Sequence record: OZ346212.1
Source of the DNA: a phage
Direction: 5' to 3' (one strand)
Length of the DNA: 64,000 bases
Part shown: one piece after another, positions 1,521 through 63,955 of the stretch
How the letters are laid out: the number at the start of each line of letters is the position of its first letter
Numbering within the stretch: position 1 is the first letter of the stretch
Position numbers and translations under genes: made by a program
The notes under the pieces: generated by a model
Seen by the model: the letters and a program-made list of their open reading frames with translations, nothing else
Told to the model about the DNA's origin: nothing
Databases searched by the model: none

Positions 1521-3944
1521 ATGAGCATGTGGTCGTTCGACTTTGAGTCATCCGGTTTGCTGGAAGACCCAGATCTTTATTATCACTGCGGCCTGTTTAA
1601 AGAGCTGAATAAGAACCGTTTTATGCTGTTCCTTCCTCTAAATGACCGCACACACTACTCCGAGGAGGATATAGAAAAGGCTAAGAACTTCATTCTGGCA
1701 AAGAAAACTCTTTATAAAGATTTTGAAGTTCGCATAGCAGATTTTTCAGAGTTGGAAGGTTGGCTTACAGGAAATTCTGACTGGTCACCAACAGCTTTGA
1801 ACTGCCATAACTGCTACAGTTATGACTTTATGCTGATGGAAAGATTATCTGGTATTCATTTTGATATGTTCCGTGATCCTAAGTGTATGGGGACTATCAA
1901 CGATCACCAGGTTAACCTGTTTGATACGTTGGCGATGAGCCGAATCTTGTGGCCTGATCGCCCTTTACCAAAAGGTTGTCCGGACTCTGTATTCAACCCG
2001 GTTACTAAGAAAATGCAGCCTGTTGGTCCTCACGGCCTTATGGCATGGGGCTACGCCCTTGGTAACCAGAAAGTTCAAATTGATGACTGGCGCGATCTTC
2101 CGTTATGGAAGTATGTGGATCGTGTATTTGAGGACGTTATCATCCAGGAGCTGCTCTGGAAAGAGCTGGTAGCGGAATCAAAAGGTGTATTCTACGGCAA
2201 ATCTGACATGCAGAACTTTATGTACGATCCTGCCAAAGAGAAGCCGAAAGGGTTCAAGAAGATCACCTGGAAGAACGCATTACGTCGAGGCATGTTGCAG
2301 CACTTCCTGATGGAGCTGCAGGCCCGTCAGGGTGTATACTTCGACATAGATGGGGCTATTGCTTTACGTGACCGCTGCGATGCGTGGATGAAAGAGATCG
2401 CTGATCGTGTTGAACCACAACTGCCTTTAAAAGAGCTGTCAATGTCTCAGCGGCCCAAGTTCCCTGAAAAGCCGTTTAACCAAGATGGGACAATCTCTAA
2501 TAATGGTTGGAAATGGTTAAAAGATAAGCTTGGCTATCCTGTGGACATGAGTGCTTTAGAGTTCAAAGCCCCACCTAAGCGAGCATTTACCTCTACAGGA
2601 GATGTCAGTAAGATGGGGATAAAATGGTGTGAAGAGATGGGCTGCAAAGACCACGATAAGATGGCTGATTTCTTGAGAGGTTATATTAAGGGCACCTCCA
2701 CACCACAACCTTTACCTAAAGAGCTGATGGATCAGGCAATAAGCGATCTGCAACAGAAGCGAATGCCTGACTGCAAGATACCTATGAAAATCAGCAATCA
2801 GGACGACATTAAGCGATACCTGATCAGTGCTGGTTGGCTTCCGACAATGTGGAGAACTAAGGATGTAACTAAGGACAGCAAGAAGAAAGCTCTACCTGAT
2901 GCAGATGTTGATGCACGAGTATATGCATACATGGACGAGCTTTTAGAGTCAGAGTATTGTGACCTAATTATCAACTTCTGGAACAAAACTGATGCTAAGT
3001 TTCAGACAACAGTGCACAAGTTCCGAAGCTTTCCTAACTCCGAAAGGATTAAAAAGGAAGTGTTCGGGAAAATACGCAGAAAAGCCAGGGCACTTATTAC
3101 TTCTCCGCAACTGAAAGATACGTTTGGACACCTATGTCCGAATCTTGAAAAATTGAACGGAGAGATGGCTAAAGATATCGTCTTGTGGTTATCATTGCGA
3201 AACCGCAGATCGGTCCTTGATCCAATCAAGGAGGATAAGGTTGATACTGGTCTTCTTAATCACCCACGTTTGAAGATTGACCATAAGCTTCCTGCTAAAA
3301 GCTCTGGATTAACAAACACTTCCCGACAGAAACACAGTATTTGTGCAAACATGCCTAAACCATCTCCTAAAGTGGTTATGGGTAAAGAGATGCGTAGCTT
3401 GTGGGGTGTTCCTCCTGGATACTTTGAGATCGGTATTGACGGGTCCAACTTAGAGCAGCTTATCGGGGCTTGGGGTGCCTTTGAGTTCGACAACGGCTTG
3501 TACTATGATGTTGTAAGTAACGGGGACGCACACCAAAACAATGCTGAGGCATATACAAAAGTAGCAGGCAGAGAGGTGTCTCGTAACGACGGTAAACCTA
3601 TCACGTATGGGGTTATGTACGGGGCACAAAAAGATAAAGTTGCAGATATGCTGGATATCTCCCCAGAGTTGGGGCAAAGGGTGATCGATGCACTTTGGGA
3701 TGCCAACCCAGGTCTTAAGGGGCGCAAAGAGGATCTGGAGAAATTCTGGGAAGCAACAGGTAAGAAGTTTATCTACTCTTTTGATGGTCATGCTATCTGG
3801 ACCCGATCTAAACACTCTTTACTTAATGCATACCAACAAAATGGCGGCGCATCGTTGTGTGACTTAGTTGGGATACTCATGCACCATCAAATGGTGAAGC
3901 GTGGGTGGTACGATGAAGGTGTTCGTCGTATTATCTATTACCAT
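1521..3944 (+). CDS. DNA polymerase family A, exon 1
   Basis: RBS AAGGAG before ATG 1521; Exo I FDFESSG; motif B KPITYGVMYGAQ; ORF ends at the His that should start motif C (HDE). Confidence 0.85.
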
Positions 3945-4786
3945 AAATAACATTGTGGCTTCGTGCAGTGATGCACGTCGAAAACCTCTTTAATTGACGG
4001 GAAGGCTAAGTTGACTTTTACACCTAAACATGGTAAAAGCTCAATATGCTAATCCGCAGCGAAGACTAAAGGGGTGTAGTTAAAATGGCTAGATCAGTTG
4101 AGTATCACGGATATACCGTGTTTGATGATGGAACAATACCTTTATCGAAACGTGATCATACAACAATGTTTTGTTTTGATAATGGTCGAGGTTACCTTTG
4201 CGTAACCATGTTCATCGAGGGGAAGCAGTGCACAAAAGGTGTCCACCACTTGGTTGCTGAATGCTTTGTATCAAACCCTGATCCTGAAAGGCTCACATGG
4301 GTGAACCATAAGGACGGAAACAAATACAACAATGCATACTGGAACCTTGAATGGACCACCCCTGGTGGAAATATCAAACACGCTTATGATAATGACCTCA
4401 GAGTAAGGCCAGTCGGTGAGTATAATGCCAACGCTGTACTGACCGAGGATGAGGTAACGGAGATTTGCGAACTGTTACAAAGTGGTTTACGACAATGCGA
4501 GATTAGGGATCTTGGGTATCCTTATGAGACGGTCAGAGCCATAAAGCAAAGAAGACAGTGGAAACATATCTCTAAAAACTACACCTGGTAGTAACGTTCA
4601 GAGACTATCGAAAGCATAGCGCCAACATAAATTGGTGCGAAGAAGCGAGTAGAGTAGACCAGCAAGTGCGGTCGAAATGGGAGGTGCCTTGGTAACAAGG
4701 TAGTGAGATAGTCCGATCCATACAGGAAACTGTATGGCTGTGCACGTAATGGTGCGGGGTAGCTTAACGACCTACCTGAACTATTG
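3945..4786 (+). mobile_element. group I intron interrupting DNA polymerase motif C
   Basis: Exon 1 ends in T3944, intron ends in G4786; P/Q/R/S-like elements at 3994, 4051-4060 (AATCCGCAGC), 4596-4610 (GTTCAGAGACTATCG), 4705-4714 (GAGATAGTCC); contains HNH ORF. Confidence 0.7.
4085..4591 (+). CDS. HNH homing endonuclease (intron-encoded)
   Basis: RBS AAAGGGG; HNH signature NHKDGNKYNNAYWNLEW; located inside intron. Confidence 0.8.
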   Translation: MARSVEYHGYTVFDDGTIPLSKRDHTTMFCFDNGRGYLCVTMFIEGKQCTKGVHHLVAECFVSNPDPERLTWVNHKDGNKYNNAYWNLEWTTPGGNIKHAYDNDLRVRPVGEYNANAVLTEDEVTEICELLQSGLRQCEIRDLGYPYETVRAIKQRRQWKHISKNYTW

Positions 4787-5140
4787 GATGAGTACCAACT
4801 TCAAGTCCCTGACACACCGAAGTATAAGACTGTGTACACCTTCGACACAATCGAAGAACTGGAAGCATTTAAGGCAGAGCAGGAGGCCAAACTTCATGTG
4901 TTCGACGGTCATAAGTACAAAAAGGCACGCAAGGATGAGGACGGAAACGAAGTGGTTGACAGAGACGGAAACACGGTGTACGATCCTATCCTGAACGATG
5001 ACGGAAAGCTTGAACTTATCTGGAGCCCTGTGGGTGAAATGGTGGTGCATTGCTTCTGGCAAGCTTCTAAAATGATGGGCGTCCCGTTCCAGATCACGGG
5101 TGAATACCTGTGTGGTCGTAATTGGGGTGATTGTCACTAA
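4787..5140 (+). CDS. DNA polymerase family A, exon 2
   Basis: Begins with DE completing motif C (IIYYH|DEYQLQV); C-terminus GRNWGDCH matches Pol I / T7 pol ends. Confidence 0.75.
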   Translation, partial: DEYQLQVPDTPKYKTVYTFDTIEELEAFKAEQEAKLHVFDGHKYKKARKDEDGNEVVDRDGNTVYDPILNDDGKLELIWSPVGEMVVHCFWQASKMMGVPFQITGEYLCGRNWGDCH

Positions 5141-5189
5141 TGTAAACTATCAACACATGGAAGTGTTGTTGAGCAAAGAGGAGACTTTT

Positions 5190-5474
5190 ATGGTAGTAGA
5201 ACCAACAAAAACATTTACATCCATGACTATCCCTGTTATTATGCAGGTGGAGTGTGTTCAGGTATCTCAAGTGTGGCCTGGCACCAAAATCCCGACAGGG
5301 CCTGATTTCTTTCAGGTTGGCAAAGTGTACAATGTCTGGAAGGCACCAGATTGTTACCCTTTCATCAAAGATGACCGTGGGATGCTGTGGTATCTTGGAA
5401 ATGATTTGACACTGCACCTTGGGAATGCTATTATTGCAGTATTCAGACTTAACAAGAAGGAGACTGATCAATGA
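5190..5474 (+). CDS. hypothetical protein
   Basis: ORF track; start moved to ATG 5190 with RBS AAGAGGAG. Confidence 0.45.
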   Translation: MVVEPTKTFTSMTIPVIMQVECVQVSQVWPGTKIPTGPDFFQVGKVYNVWKAPDCYPFIKDDRGMLWYLGNDLTLHLGNAIIAVFRLNKKETDQ

Positions 5475-37763: not shown

Positions 37764-39035
37764 TCAGCAACCACAACTTCCGTAGTGCTTAACTCGCTCG
37801 ATAACTTCCGCTTGCTTACCTTTATTGTAAGGACGGGAGTTAGGACTGGAAAGGTATCCAGACACACGTCGAATTACACTGATCGTTCCCTCTTCATGGT
37901 TTCCACACTCTGGGCATACAAAGCCTTTAGCTGTTGCACTGAACTCACCAGAGAAACCACACTTGAGACATTTATCCACAGGTTGGTTAATACCAAAATA
38001 CATAATGTGTTTATACCCGAAGTCAACAAGAGCCTCTAAAGCATCCAGGTTGTTTTTCAGGTTAGGTGTTTCTACGTATCCGATGTTGCCACCAGAGGAT
38101 ATCATAGCAAAACCTTCTTCATACTCCCACTTATCAAAAGGAGAGCTATTGATCCATACTGGCTGATGGAAACTGTTGGTGAGATATTCATGCTCGTGCT
38201 TCAACACTTCAGGATATTCACGATCCAGACAGGTTGCAGCTTTATAGCATAGACTCTCAGAAGGGGTGCCGTACAAACTAAACGCTAGTCTACTTTTCTT
38301 CTTGTATCGCTCACAAGCATCTCTCATGTGCTGAAGTATTCCAAGAGCTAAAGCCTTGTCACCCTCTCTGCCCAAAATCTGACAGGTTTCATACACACCA
38401 ATATACCCAATACTGATGGAAGCGTACCCGTCATAGAAGAGTTTATCAATACTCTCTTCAGGATCCAGGCGAGCAAGAGCGCCTTCACACCACATGATAG
38501 GGTTCTGCCCTGCCTTAGTGCCTTTCAGACGGTTAACCCTTACAAGGTGAGCTTCATATGCCAAATCCAGATACTCGTCAAGAACGGAAAAGAAATCAAC
38601 ACCTTCCGTCTTAGCTTTTGCCGCAATCATTGGCAGGTTAAGACTAACAACACCCAAGTTGAATCTGCCGAGGTATTTCTCCTCACCTGTTTCCAAGTCA
38701 TTGTATTTGCTAAGAAAACTCCGGCAACCCATGCTCGTTACTTTACCATCTGTCGAGCCTGTCACTTTACGATTTAGTGGAACAGAAACAAAGTCAGGAT
38801 AAATCCGCTCTGCAGAGCATTCCAGAGCTAATCGTTTCAAATCATAGTTAGGATCTCCAGGGTTCATGTTGACACCCTCTTCTAGGAAGAACAACACTTT
38901 AGGGAACACAGGTGTGATACGTTCTTCACCAAGACCCATTTTGTGGACTTTCAAGTAGTTTTTGGTAATCATTCTACCAAAGACTGAGGTGTCCAGACCT
39001 AAACTTAATGTGATGAATGGAGTCTGCTGTCTCCT
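37764..39035 (-). CDS. nrdD: anaerobic ribonucleotide reductase NrdD, exon 2
   Basis: Glycyl-radical motif RRVSGYL near C-terminus; frame open upstream of the track start to 39065. Confidence 0.8.
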   Translation of the reverse strand, partial: RRQQTPFITLSLGLDTSVFGRMITKNYLKVHKMGLGEERITPVFPKVLFFLEEGVNMNPGDPNYDLKRLALECSAERIYPDFVSVPLNRKVTGSTDGKVTSMGCRSFLSKYNDLETGEEKYLGRFNLGVVSLNLPMIAAKAKTEGVDFFSVLDEYLDLAYEAHLVRVNRLKGTKAGQNPIMWCEGALARLDPEESIDKLFYDGYASISIGYIGVYETCQILGREGDKALALGILQHMRDACERYKKKSRLAFSLYGTPSESLCYKAATCLDREYPEVLKHEHEYLTNSFHQPVWINSSPFDKWEYEEGFAMISSGGNIGYVETPNLKNNLDALEALVDFGYKHIMYFGINQPVDKCLKCGFSGEFSATAKGFVCPECGNHEEGTISVIRRVSGYLSSPNSRPYNKGKQAEVIERVKHYGSCGC

Positions 39036-39832
39036 CCCTGTGTTTCCACAGGGCCAGACTATCTCTTACTCTACTTCAATAAGATAATAACCCTTTATTG
39101 TGAGATGCTTACCTTCGGCATTTCCTTCGATAGCCCTATGAACGTTACCTACGTTCAAATTTAAGGCTTTTGCACAGGCATAGAGTGAAGGATATTCACC
39201 CACCAAGGTTTTACCTTTGTATGCCTGCACTTTCCTATAGCACTTACCTGGACAAAGTCCTGTTCGGAAAGCATGTCTCTTATTATCTTCCGGCAAAACC
39301 CACTCTAGGTTAGACGGATGATCATTCAATGTATTGCCATCTTTATGATTCACTTCCCAGTTTTCAGGGTCTTCTGGGACATCCGGCAAACAATACAAGG
39401 CAACAATCCTTGAGGTTTGGATTCGAATCTTTTTACCTTTGTGGTTGAAAGAGTACATATAACGGCGTTTAACATGCTTGTTACCTTTTCCATAACCTCC
39501 CCACAATATTGGGTGTAGCATTCCACGTTTTCCGTATACGTTTCCAACCTCATCAATCACATAGTTTGATTCTTCACCATTAAGAATGATCTTTTTCATA
39601 GAGCCTCTCCATTTCGAAGTTAGTATTTCAACTAACCCCTACACTACTTGGTTCAGAAATGTTTGTCAAGCATTTCTGCCTTTCGTTAGTCGTTACAACC
39701 GTTCCAACTCCTGTAAGAACTAGTCACGGGATTGGCATAGCTTTCGCCTTAGCGTTCCCCGTTAGCCGGATTTACCGACCCCTCTTATGAGGTTAGGAGA
39801 GTTTTACAACGGCCAGTTTGTTAACCGTTGAC
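39036..39832 (-). mobile_element. group I intron in nrdD
   Basis: 5' intron core contains ACGGGGAAC...CAATCCCGTG as in T4 td/nrdB/nrdD introns; ends in G before exon 2; HNH ORF inside. Confidence 0.7.
39066..39599 (-). CDS. HNH homing endonuclease (intron-encoded)
   Basis: NHKDGNTLNDHPSNLEWV; paralog of the HNH at 4085..4591. Confidence 0.8.
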   Translation of the reverse strand: MKKIILNGEESNYVIDEVGNVYGKRGMLHPILWGGYGKGNKHVKRRYMYSFNHKGKKIRIQTSRIVALYCLPDVPEDPENWEVNHKDGNTLNDHPSNLEWVLPEDNKRHAFRTGLCPGKCYRKVQAYKGKTLVGEYPSLYACAKALNLNVGNVHRAIEGNAEGKHLTIKGYYLIEVE

Positions 39833-40684
39833 AGAAGTTAACGTGTTGATTTGATAGAGCAAAGTCTGCATGCTGTCAAATACGTCTTTATCTGTCATTT
39901 GCATTGCAACAGTTTCAGCATCCGGCAACCAATGTTCCTGGCAAAATTTAAGGTTCTTCTCATAGGTTGCTTCAGCATACTGTGCCAGATAATGATCAAT
40001 ATGGCTCATAGTCTGACCACCATATTGAGCACTAGCTACCGCACTAGAGATTTGGCTAAGGATTGTTGTTGCAACCCCTATTGACTTCGGCTTACTGACA
40101 TGGGCGTTACCAATGTTGAATCCGTTTTCCAACATATCTGGATAATTTACCAAACAACAGTTTGTTAACGGACTGATCAAGTAGTCAAGATCATGCACAT
40201 GGATGAATCCTTTATTGTGCTCTTCGGAGACACGGTCTGGCAGGATCTGTGTTGATGCAAGGTGTTTGCTAAGAATACCTGCAAGCAGGTCGCGATGAGT
40301 GTGTACATGATTAGTAGGCTTATTTGCGTTTTCTTTTGTAAATTCATCACAAGTTCGATCCAAGAAGCCACTAATATCTGCAAGCAGTTTTCCACCTGCC
40401 TCTCTGTTATTATCTCTTGTCTGTCTATACTGGATGTATTCTCTGGCTGCACATTTTAAACCCATATCCATAAGAGCATCTTCAACAAGGATATGGATAT
40501 TTTTTACAGAGATCGTGCACTGGTCGGTTGGTAGATTGTTAGCAACAACTTCATTAACCGCGCAGGCGATCCGGTAAGCTTCTTCTTCAGTATGTCCAGA
40601 CTCAAGTAAGGCGGACTCTGCCGCCTTGATCACCTTAATTCCGTTATAGAACTCTTCTCTACCGTCCCGTTTTACAACTTTCAC
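39833..40684 (-). CDS. nrdD: anaerobic ribonucleotide reductase NrdD, exon 1
   Basis: N-terminal ATP-cone MKVVKRDGREEFYNGIKVIKA; exon end placed at TCT (Ser), boundary +/- a few codons. Confidence 0.8.
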
Positions 40685-63584: not shown

Positions 63585-63659
63585 GCCCTGTTAGCTTAGT
63601 GGATAAAGCAGCGGCCTTCTAAGCCGTTGACACTGGTTCGAGTCCAGTACGGGGTGCCA
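63585..63659 (+). tRNA. tRNA-Arg (anticodon TCT)
   Basis: Cloverleaf folded by hand: acceptor GCCCTGT/ACGGGGT, D-stem GCTT/AAGC, anticodon loop CTTCTAA, T-loop TTCGAGT, encoded CCA. Confidence 0.8.
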
Positions 63660-63663
63660 AATT

Positions 63664-63750
63664 GGGGAGTTATCCCGTAGAGGTAGCGGTGTAGACTGTA
63701 AATCTATTGTCATTGCGACTCGGGTGGTTCGACTCCACCACTCCCCACCA
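63664..63750 (+). tRNA. tRNA-Tyr (anticodon GTA)
   Basis: Acceptor GGGGAGT/ACTCCCC, anticodon loop CTGTAAA, long variable arm, T-loop TTCGACT, encoded CCA. Confidence 0.8.
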
Positions 63751-63864
63751 AATTTATATTTTTAGATGCATAAATAATACAGATAATGGCATTGATATTT
63801 ATCGTCGTTTATACTAGTCACTAACTGCTCGAAAATCAGTGTCATTATCAGTATTATTTATAAA

Positions 63865-63955
63865 GGAGGGTAGGGAGCAATGGTGCTCAATCGGTCTTGA
63901 AAACCGTCCCGTTGAGGATGACTCGATGATGGTTCGATTCCATTACTCTCCGCCA
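63865..63955 (+). tRNA. tRNA-Ser (anticodon TGA)
   Basis: Acceptor GGAGGGT/ACTCTCC, anticodon loop CTTGAAA, long variable arm, T-loop TTCGATT, encoded CCA. Confidence 0.7.

Follow-up and report, generated by a model that had tools for sequence, protein, structure and literature searches.

A probable mobile group I intron with a putative HNH homing endonuclease gene in motif C of an rV5-like coliphage DNA polymerase gene

We analyzed a 64,000-nt stretch of phage DNA (sequence record OZ346212.1, hereafter the window) and found that motif C of its family A DNA polymerase, His808-Asp809-Glu810, is split exactly by an insert of 842 nt. Very probably, this insert (positions 3945-4786) is a mobile group I intron of IA2 architecture which resides, with a homing endonuclease, in the polymerase gene of an rV5-like coliphage. 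We observed that its boundaries are exact, that the ribozyme fold is conserved, that joining of the exons restores the reading frame, that alleles with and without the intron exist, and that the intron lies within a recombinant patch. A preliminary description of this DNA had proposed a group I intron with an HNH endonuclease at this place; its mechanism is almost certainly correct, and every coordinate that it gave was correct. Features are collected in Table 1.

Table 1. Polymerase exons, intron helices and intron-encoded gene in the window.
Feature	Coordinates	Strand	Description and evidence
Exon 1, family A DNA polymerase	1521..3944	+	808 codons, ends ..IIYYH; ORF list, sequence, Pfam, T7 alignment
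Group I intron, IA2-like	3945..4786	+	842 nt, starts AAAUAACAUUGUGG, ends ..CUAUUG; RF00028, gap in intronless alleles, covariation
P1	3941..3958	+	CCAU + AA (3941-3946) with guide UUGUGG (3953-3958); Rfam alignment; invariant 12/12
P10, guide part	3951..3954	+	CAUU with exon 2 GAUG (4787-4790), 4 bp; read from sequence
P2 hairpin	3962..3977	+	CGUGCA-GUGA-UGCACG, GNRA loop; 6/6 pairs changed on both sides, 100% of cells paired
P3, 5' strand	3985..3990	+	CCUCUU with GGGAGG 4679-4684; 3/6 compensatory, 100% of cells paired
P4-P5 domain	3995..4058	+	P4 3995-4001 with 4053-4058; Rfam alignment, pair counts, MFE fold
P6/P6a, endonuclease gene looped out	4059..4597	+	P6 4059-4060 with 4596-4597; Rfam alignment
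P6a pairs	4065-4068 with 4589-4592; 4070-4072 with 4584-4586	+	ACUA with UAGU; AGG with CCU
Putative HNH homing endonuclease gene, I-HmuI-like	4085..4591	+	168 aa; phrog_59, 1U3E, weak Pfam
P7, guanosine-binding	4603..4713	+	GACUA 4603-4607 with UAGUC 4709-4713; 100% paired, one compensatory pair
P7.1; GUA linker	~4608-4653; 4654-4656	+	Enclosed by P7; GTA invariant in alignment A1
P7.2	4657-4660 with 4670-4673	+	Enclosed by P7; 3/4 compensatory
P3, 3' strand	4679-4684	+	Enclosed by P7
P8	4685-4690 with 4697-4702	+	Enclosed by P7; 5/6 compensatory
P9	4718-4725 with 4730-4737	+	GAAA loop 4726-4729, kept 12/12; 4/8 compensatory
P9.1	4741-4745 with 4752-4756	+	P9 region 4718..4776
P9.2	4758-4762 with 4772-4776	+	3/5 compensatory
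Exon 2, polymerase	4787..5140	+	117 codons + stop; DEYQLQV (motif C Asp-Glu) to ..GRNWGDCH; translation, T7 alignment

The source phage is an rV5-like E. coli phage (Vequintavirus). Positions 1521-5140 matched 121 phage records by megablast, nearly all of them rV5-like coliphages (Vequintavirus), and the best match was Escherichia phage HeinrichReichert (98.2% identity). A gene for a DnaB-type primase/helicase lies upstream of the polymerase gene, and a second intron of the window is located in nrdD.

The ORF list and the sequence confirmed that ORF 1521..3950 ends one codon past the motif C His, as the preliminary description had stated. It encodes 809 aa, with the C-terminus ..RRIIYYHK before TAA; without splicing, the exon 1 frame gains a Lys and then stops (TAA, 3948-3950), one codon past His808. 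The C-terminus of the polymerase had been assigned to ORF 4784..5140 and was found there by translation (TTG start, (L)DEYQLQV.., C-terminus ..GRNWGDCH). Neither a Shine-Dalgarno sequence nor an own ATG was seen when the sequence upstream of exon 2 was inspected. Ligation of U3944 to G4787 gave an in-frame, stop-free frame of 2778 nt (predicted ligated exons ..UAUUACCAU joined to GAUGAGUACC..) and restored motif C as proposed, with a 925-aa product reading ..IIYYH/DEYQLQV.. (slash, splice junction) and the predicted junction peptide IIYYHDEYQLQVPDTPK. T7 polymerase, a Pol A family member, aligned with this product without a break; the aligned part (query residues 633-813) extends from motif A to motif C and crosses the junction (motif C, ..rriiyyHDEyql.. 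vs ..aymawvHDEiqv..). In the same alignment, exon 1 was found to carry Exo I (FDFES), motif A (GIDGSNLE) and motif B (RNDGKPITYGVMYGA). The spliced product has motifs A, B and C of family A polymerases, with the catalytic Asp residues, in one continuous chain; exon 1 alone scored 27.9 bits with Pfam DNA_pol_A, under the cut-off of 34.3. Besides, an in-frame insert of 323 codons was present elsewhere in the polymerase gene of the related phages JEP1 and VB-EcoM-WM, and a Pfam search of this 323-aa insert gave no match.

The limits of the 842-nt insert were defined by comparison of a 600-nt query, the two exon ends ligated at 3944/4787, with Vequintavirus genomes. Many of these genomes, such as DrSchubert, nomine, JohannBauhin and Murica, matched the query uninterrupted at ~97-98% identity; other genomes had a gap of 276 nt or ~842 nt. 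In base-level alignments, the intronless allele read ..TATTACCAT/GACGAATAT.. in DrSchubert and ..TATTACCAT/GATGAGTAC.. in Murica. The common form was ..TATTACCAT/GAYGARTAY.., with the 842 nt absent to the base and no added base, and the stretch across the insertion site in DrSchubert was ..TATTACCATGACGAATATCAG... Because intronless alleles read straight across the junction, the insert is exactly 3945-4786 and a one-base shift is impossible, in agreement with the junction first proposed. Homologs skipped the insert precisely, and none of full length was continuous through 3945..4786. Exact-sequence look-ups extended this picture to the protein level: the spliced 925-aa protein of the window was found verbatim in NCBI data, on a contig of 135,398 bp, and the spliced protein of HeinrichReichert was identical to the uninterrupted polymerase of DrSchubert and nomine. 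Similarly, the RudolfGeigy protein spliced at the same His/Asp site was identical to the deposited joined CDS QXV84155.1.

With regard to the class of the intron, Rfam at gathering thresholds reported only tRNAs across the window and missed the intron; the gathering score of RF00028 (Intron_gpI) is 50 bits. When an E-value threshold was used, RF00028 aligned along its full length with 3935..4736; the score of 39.1 bits fell short of 50, and the E-value was 3e-8 in a 1-kb stretch (1.8e-6 in the whole window), far from what chance would produce. A covariance-model search of the insert had been proposed in the preliminary description. In the alignment of the window copy, P6 holds an insertion of 510 nt, and ~70 nt separate P7 from P3'; the low score is explained by the 510-nt ORF in P6 and the ~70-nt P7.1/7.2 insertion. 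Introns at the same site that lack the homing endonuclease gene (HEG-less introns) scored higher: 73.7 bits in JEP1, 72.5 in JLBYU08, 69.8 in KP12, 64.7 in rV5 and 91.2 in TH18. The JEP1 intron was the closest HEG-less homolog and has the backbone of the window intron minus the ORF. The sequences that had been likened to P/Q/R/S elements are real, as the RF00028 alignment placed AAUUGACGGGAA, AAUCCGCAGC, GUUCAGAGACUA and GAGAUAGUCC where expected.

Fourteen phages (Vequintavirus, Seunavirus, Certrevirus and relatives) supplied introns at the same site. Each of these introns is located after ..YYH and before DE.., and the exon 2 start GATG was kept in all intron-bearing homologs. We aligned 12 of the intron cores with endonuclease ORFs removed (alignment A1) and defined helices P1-P9.2 on the window sequence. 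P5, P5a and P5b were excluded from the counted structure, the P5a/P5b columns being out of register between genera, and the length-variable P7.1 was excluded from scoring. We found that 99.1% of the 692 cells form standard pairs, compared with 33-41% when partners were slid, and that both sides had changed in 25 of the 59 pairs, compared with 0-5 for slid partners; none of 500 shuffles reached 25. The covarying helices were P2, P3, P7, P7.2, P8, P9 and P9.2. A few non-pairing cells each were observed in P4 and P6, and these are probably register shifts. The ORF-deleted core had an MFE fold z-score of -3.6, with local helices recovered.

The core helices of a group I intron, P3-P8 with the P3/P7 pseudoknot and covariation, are all present in the window copy. 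Its splice sites are likewise those of a group I intron, with a U.G pair in a 6-bp P1, G4786 as the last nucleotide and a P10 with exon 2. The class assigned at the outset was upheld by the covariance-model match, covariation, the P1 U.G pair, P10 and the terminal G, and the U at the end of exon 1 (T3944) and the G at the end of the intron (G4786, the terminal or omega G) were read directly from the sequence. In subgroup IA2, P7.1 and P7.2 lie between the P7 5' strand and the P3 3' strand and are joined by G-U-A (PMC3428280). The window intron has ~70 nt from P7 (4603-4607) to P3' (4679-4684), and the GTA before P7.2 is invariant in 12/12 copies. Judged by P7.1/P7.2, the invariant GUA and the location of the ORF in P6a, its architecture is that of subgroup IA2.

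Several details of the fold deserve mention. The pair at the 5' splice site, U3944.G3955, is a wobble, and the ligated exons CCAU/GAUG would lie opposite the continuous CAUUGUGG (guide CAUU/GUGG), which comprises P1 and P10. The P4-P5 domain also has an extended P5a/b hairpin. Its P5 strands, GCUAAG (4005-4010) and UAUGC (4045-4049), resemble the 11-nt GAAA-tetraloop receptor (motif CCUAAG..UAUGG), and docking with the L9 GAAA is proposed on this likeness. In the HEG-less introns of JEP1 and JLBYU08, P6a is a simple hairpin, CAUCC-GAGA-GGAUG, at the ORF position.

The ORF inside the 842 nt had been described as HNH, and it proved to be I-HmuI-like. It matched the phrog_59 'HNH endonuclease' family with an E-value of 6.5e-38, and its sole significant PDB match was 1U3E (I-HmuI; E 4.4e-6). 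The alignment with 1U3E, ..VNHKDGNKYNNAYWNLEWTTPGGNIKH opposite ..VDHKDGNKDNNLSTNLRWVTQKINVEN, retains the catalytic His and both Asn of HNH; the match to Pfam HNH_3 was weak (17.7 bits, under the cut-off of 24.8). At the position of I-HmuI Asp74, this alignment has an Asn in the 168-aa ORF. In the I-HmuI structure paper, Asp74 is reportedly a metal ligand, and because of this Asn we treat the protein as a predicted endonuclease. The ORF was open in every HEG-bearing copy examined, and it differed from the copy in phage WM by 21 synonymous and 5 non-synonymous codons. Both its Shine-Dalgarno-like AAGGGG and its stop codon fall within P6a helix strands, a pairing which may limit translation of the ORF from the precursor. 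No convincing internal promoter was found. According to a recent survey, phrog_59 is the main endonuclease family in Bastillevirinae polymerase introns.

Allelic states of the site among relatives were counted in an evenly spaced sample of ranked ligated-exon matches: ~15 Vequintavirus records were intronless, 7 had a 276-nt HEG-less intron and 8 had the 842-nt HEG-bearing form. A HEG-less form of 328-329 nt was found in JEP1 and JLBYU08, and PVP-SE1 has at the same site a LAGLIDADG gene in the P7.1/7.2 region. Window positions 3759-5278 (1,520 nt) were 100% identical to phage AlexBoehm, and the flanks showed 90-97% identity (3-10% differing). Besides the intron, this tract takes in 186 nt of exon 1 and, downstream, 492 nt made up of the whole of exon 2 and a further 138 nt. 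HeinrichReichert is closer to the window overall, yet it has more than 20 differences inside the intron. The identical tract suggests a recent transfer, and its pattern would be expected of gene conversion with co-conversion of flanks, putatively driven by endonuclease homing. The endonuclease modules at the site include HNH in P6a (window), a different HNH from P4-P5 through P6 (CB7), LAGLIDADG in P7.1/7.2 (PVP-SE1) and none. It is possible, although we consider it rather unlikely, that a single intron lineage occupies the motif C His/Asp-Glu site in at least three Vequintavirinae genera and, from the literature, in T7-like podoviruses, with interchangeable endonuclease modules in different loops. 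If repeated independent invasions of a shared ribozyme scaffold did occur and the endonuclease also serves as a weapon against co-infecting relatives that lack the intron, which is reported for PhiPA3, these phages would be a convenient natural system for the whole homing cycle, and intron-mediated phage competition would be open to study in E. coli K-12.

The mechanism that we propose is as follows. The pre-mRNA would fold into the ribozyme, and exogenous guanosine would attack after U3944, whose U.G wobble with the guide holds it in P1. P10 would then align exon 2 for the second step, in which the free 3' OH of U3944 would attack after G4786 and the exons would be ligated. Ligation would restore the His808-Asp809-Glu810 codons and thereby yield an active 925-aa family A polymerase. 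As for mobility, the 168-aa I-HmuI-like protein is predicted, in mixed infections, to cut or nick polymerase alleles that lack the intron, close to the insertion site, and repair off the intron-bearing genome would copy the intron with short flanking exon tracts. Catalysis of splicing by the window copy, like the activity, strand preference and target of the endonuclease, is predicted here from sequence.

Alternatively, the insert could be kept in the RNA, with the polymerase translated as separate chains of 809 aa and ~117 aa that then come together, as reported for NrdA of Aeh1. We regard this as highly improbable. The break falls between the motif C His and Asp-Glu and, although ORF 4784-5140 has a possible TTG start, no ribosome-binding site is visible for exon 2. 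Many GenBank records do list both parts as separate CDSs, and phage split genes of such a kind are known; the CB7 paper describes the HNH-split NrdA of Aeromonas phage Aeh1 and a CB7 insert without splicing (PMC7344957). However, the CB7 intron at the same site as that of the window is spliced, and compensatory changes keep the full group I fold even in HEG-less variants, a fold conservation that an unspliced spacer would not explain.

It also seems very unlikely that the intron is a decayed, splicing-defective relic or that its endonuclease is dead, which would leave an immobile passenger that is tolerated or spliced with the help of host or phage proteins. The polymerase is essential and the isolates are viable and plaque-forming; therefore, splicing must work. 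An Rfam score below threshold would be consistent with decay, but 99.1% of core-helix cells are paired. Similarly, the Asn at the I-HmuI Asp74 position could point to a dead enzyme, but the ORF is open in all HEG-bearing copies examined, with differences that are mostly synonymous. Sister phages often have HEG-less and shortened forms, as expected of a homing cycle with degeneration, whereas the 1,520-nt tract identical to a phage that is otherwise 3-10% different argues against immobility. We also considered that an intein, or recoding by frameshift or readthrough, might take the place of an RNA intron, in view of the 323-codon in-frame insert elsewhere in related polymerases, which shows that protein-level insertions do occur in this enzyme. 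The in-frame stop codon and the covariation of the RNA refute this reading: the exon 1 frame meets TAA after one codon, the one long ORF of the insert is an HNH gene of its own, in another context, and the insert matches a ribozyme model and covaries at the RNA level.

A mobile group I intron at this site has practical consequences. In many public rV5-like genomes, the polymerase is still annotated in two or three pieces, as if these ORFs were unrelated, and the correct annotation is a single 925-aa enzyme. Since the intron and co-converted flanks move between lineages, as the 1,520-nt AlexBoehm-identical patch indicates, the region should be masked in phylogenies. In addition, three allelic states (intronless, ribozyme only, and ribozyme with endonuclease) occur in easily grown K-12 phages and offer a simple system for homing and competition. 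The current view of group I introns is unchanged by these findings.

Sister phages already have this intron in their annotation, and it is an ordinary representative of a class that is well known. The novelty implied by the preliminary description was therefore not sustained, as GenBank records of these sister phages show the same intron by means of a joined CDS, and it is also mentioned in print. The BASEL phages HeinrichReichert, AlexBoehm, RudolfGeigy and MaxTheCat, as well as LL12, have the same element at the same site, with no substantive difference from the window; in AlexBoehm, the intron and endonuclease gene are 100% identical to those of the window. GenBank records of the BASEL phages contain a two-piece joined polymerase CDS enclosing a 'putative homing endonuclease', and in the BASEL paper comparative genomics was used to set intron boundaries (PMC8594841). 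The genome note of LL12 states that predicted introns disrupt the polymerase and large terminase genes (PMC6658697), and the rV5 paper discusses terminase introns only (PMC3606486). The literature searched contained no secondary structure of the Vequintavirus polymerase intron, and neither an analysis of its covariation nor an assay of its splicing.

The nearest counterpart with splicing data is Pectobacterium phage CB7 (Certrevirus), in which splicing of both HNH-bearing polymerase introns was demonstrated by RT-PCR and Sanger sequencing (PMC7344957). Its second polymerase intron, with the HNH gene CB7_50, is located at the same site as that of the window (..YYH/DEYQL..) and shares with it the 5' end (AAGUAACAUUGUGGCUU) and a homologous 3' half. 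It has 687 nt and scored 46.6 bits with RF00028. The HNH ORF of CB7 starts in P4-P5, overlaps the P4 3' strand and runs through P6, whereas the window ORF is in the P6a loop, and the two phages differ in genus and host. The T7-like phages PhiI and W31, which are podoviruses of enteric bacteria unrelated to rV5, have polymerase introns that resemble that of the window by published description. They are reported to be IA2 introns with an HNH ORF in P6a at site 881 (E. coli numbering) (PMC3428280). Site 881 is, by standard Pol I numbering, His881 of His-Asp-Glu, the site split in the window. The PhiI and W31 introns encode I-TslI, and Bonocora and Shub (2004) are said to have observed that they self-splice.

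Like the window intron, that of SPO1 (also SP82 and Bastille) is a group I intron in a phage family A polymerase gene with an HNH endonuclease (I-HmuI), and I-HmuI and the window ORF both belong to phrog_59, the family that dominates polymerase introns. The host of SPO1 is Gram-positive, and I-HmuI is a nicking enzyme that cuts intron-bearing DNA too. The SPO1 intron is at site 674 near motif A, in the fingers (PMC3428280), whereas the window intron is in motif C. A weak blastn match of the intron 3' domain, Salmonella phage S.Kent 1-2-1, was set aside as a same-site homolog; the group I intron of this phage, which scored 51 bits, interrupts a different polymerase after ..GRLSASNP. Its site appears to be the upstream one near motif A that has been reported in SPO1 and phiL7, rather than motif C. 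The T4 introns in td, nrdB and nrdD (sunY) are, like that of the window, coliphage group I introns with endonuclease ORFs looped from peripheral helices. They belong to subgroup IA2, and their endonucleases include the GIY-YIG enzyme I-TevI, and I-TevII. Compared with the window intron, the T4 introns differ in their host genes (except nrdD) and in their endonuclease families.

In addition to the intron in its DNA polymerase gene, the window contains a second group I intron, located on the minus strand and interrupting nrdD, the anaerobic ribonucleotide reductase gene. A local search with RF00028, the Rfam group I intron model (cut-off 50 bits), gave 27.8 bits (E 7e-5), and the ORFs on either side of the intron cover positions 1-154 and 181-562 of the Pfam NRDD domain. 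Comparison of the window with the intronless phage JohannBauhin showed that exactly 797 nt are absent at this site in the latter. After a one-base shift of the boundaries, U is the last base of the exon and G that of the intron; P1 is CAACGGU/GCCGUUG, and the first codon of the intron is TAA. The ORF within it encodes, besides HNH_3, an I-HmuI NUMOD-like domain. We found that the presence of this intron varies across sister phages, and that the EmilHeitz record already gives nrdD as a joined CDS.

Features in the window and in loci of related phages
Feature	Position	Strand	Evidence or remark
nrdD intron	39027-39823	minus	RF00028 match, intronless allele
nrdD flanking ORFs	39821-40684 and 37764-38972	minus	Pfam NRDD
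ORF inside nrdD intron	39066-39599	minus	177 aa, HNH_3
Extra upstream polymerase intron	L013 1744-2414		CB7
Extra upstream polymerase intron	L017 810-1481		KP12
Extra upstream polymerase intron	L010 60-208		GEC_vB_MG
Extra upstream polymerase intron	L012 2-205		TH18
323-aa insert	Polymerase exon 1, equivalent to window ~3533/3534, between codons 671 and 672 (..NGDAH|QNNAE..)		VB-EcoM-WM, JEP1
tRNA, clear	63585-63656		67.8 bits
Two tRNA-like genes, long-arm	63664-63746 and 63865-63951		Best model tRNA-Sec, score below cut-off

The polymerase intron lies at the centre of a 1,520-nt tract (3759-5278) that is 100% identical to AlexBoehm, with both flanks differing by 3-10%; the tract is a recombinant patch. 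Related phages carry one intron scaffold at the same His|Asp-Glu site of the polymerase, with differing cargo placed in differing loops. For example, PVP-SE1 has a LAGLIDADG gene placed after P7, and the P6 extension of KP12 is long and non-coding. In CB7 the initial codons of an HNH gene overlap the P4 3' strand, with a sigma-70-like TTGACA-17-TATGAT upstream of the gene, and the TH18 intron has no cargo.

Two sister phages, VB-EcoM-WM and JEP1, have a 969-nt in-frame insertion in the polymerase gene, which is missing from the window. Its termini are intein-like (starting with Cys, CYSGDTQIL.., and ending ..VAVCGN). However, the extein residue that follows is Gln and not Cys, Ser or Thr, and a Pfam search of the insert found no domain. 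The insert may be an atypical intein. Near its far end, the window also carries a tRNA cluster (63585-63951).

Further introns were detected in relatives. In four phages, RF00028 matches an extra group I intron at 36-47 bits, further upstream within this polymerase gene; the polymerase gene of the window lacks it. Also, the core of the polymerase intron matched a second place in several Vequintavirus genomes; the records with two match places include rV5, SophiaRose, VB-EcoM-WM, Campylobacter phage C7 and others. The window itself showed no other copy related to the core. Presumably, the second match place marks a related intron that interrupts a different gene; the large terminase gene of rV5 has been described as split into three segments (PMC3606486).
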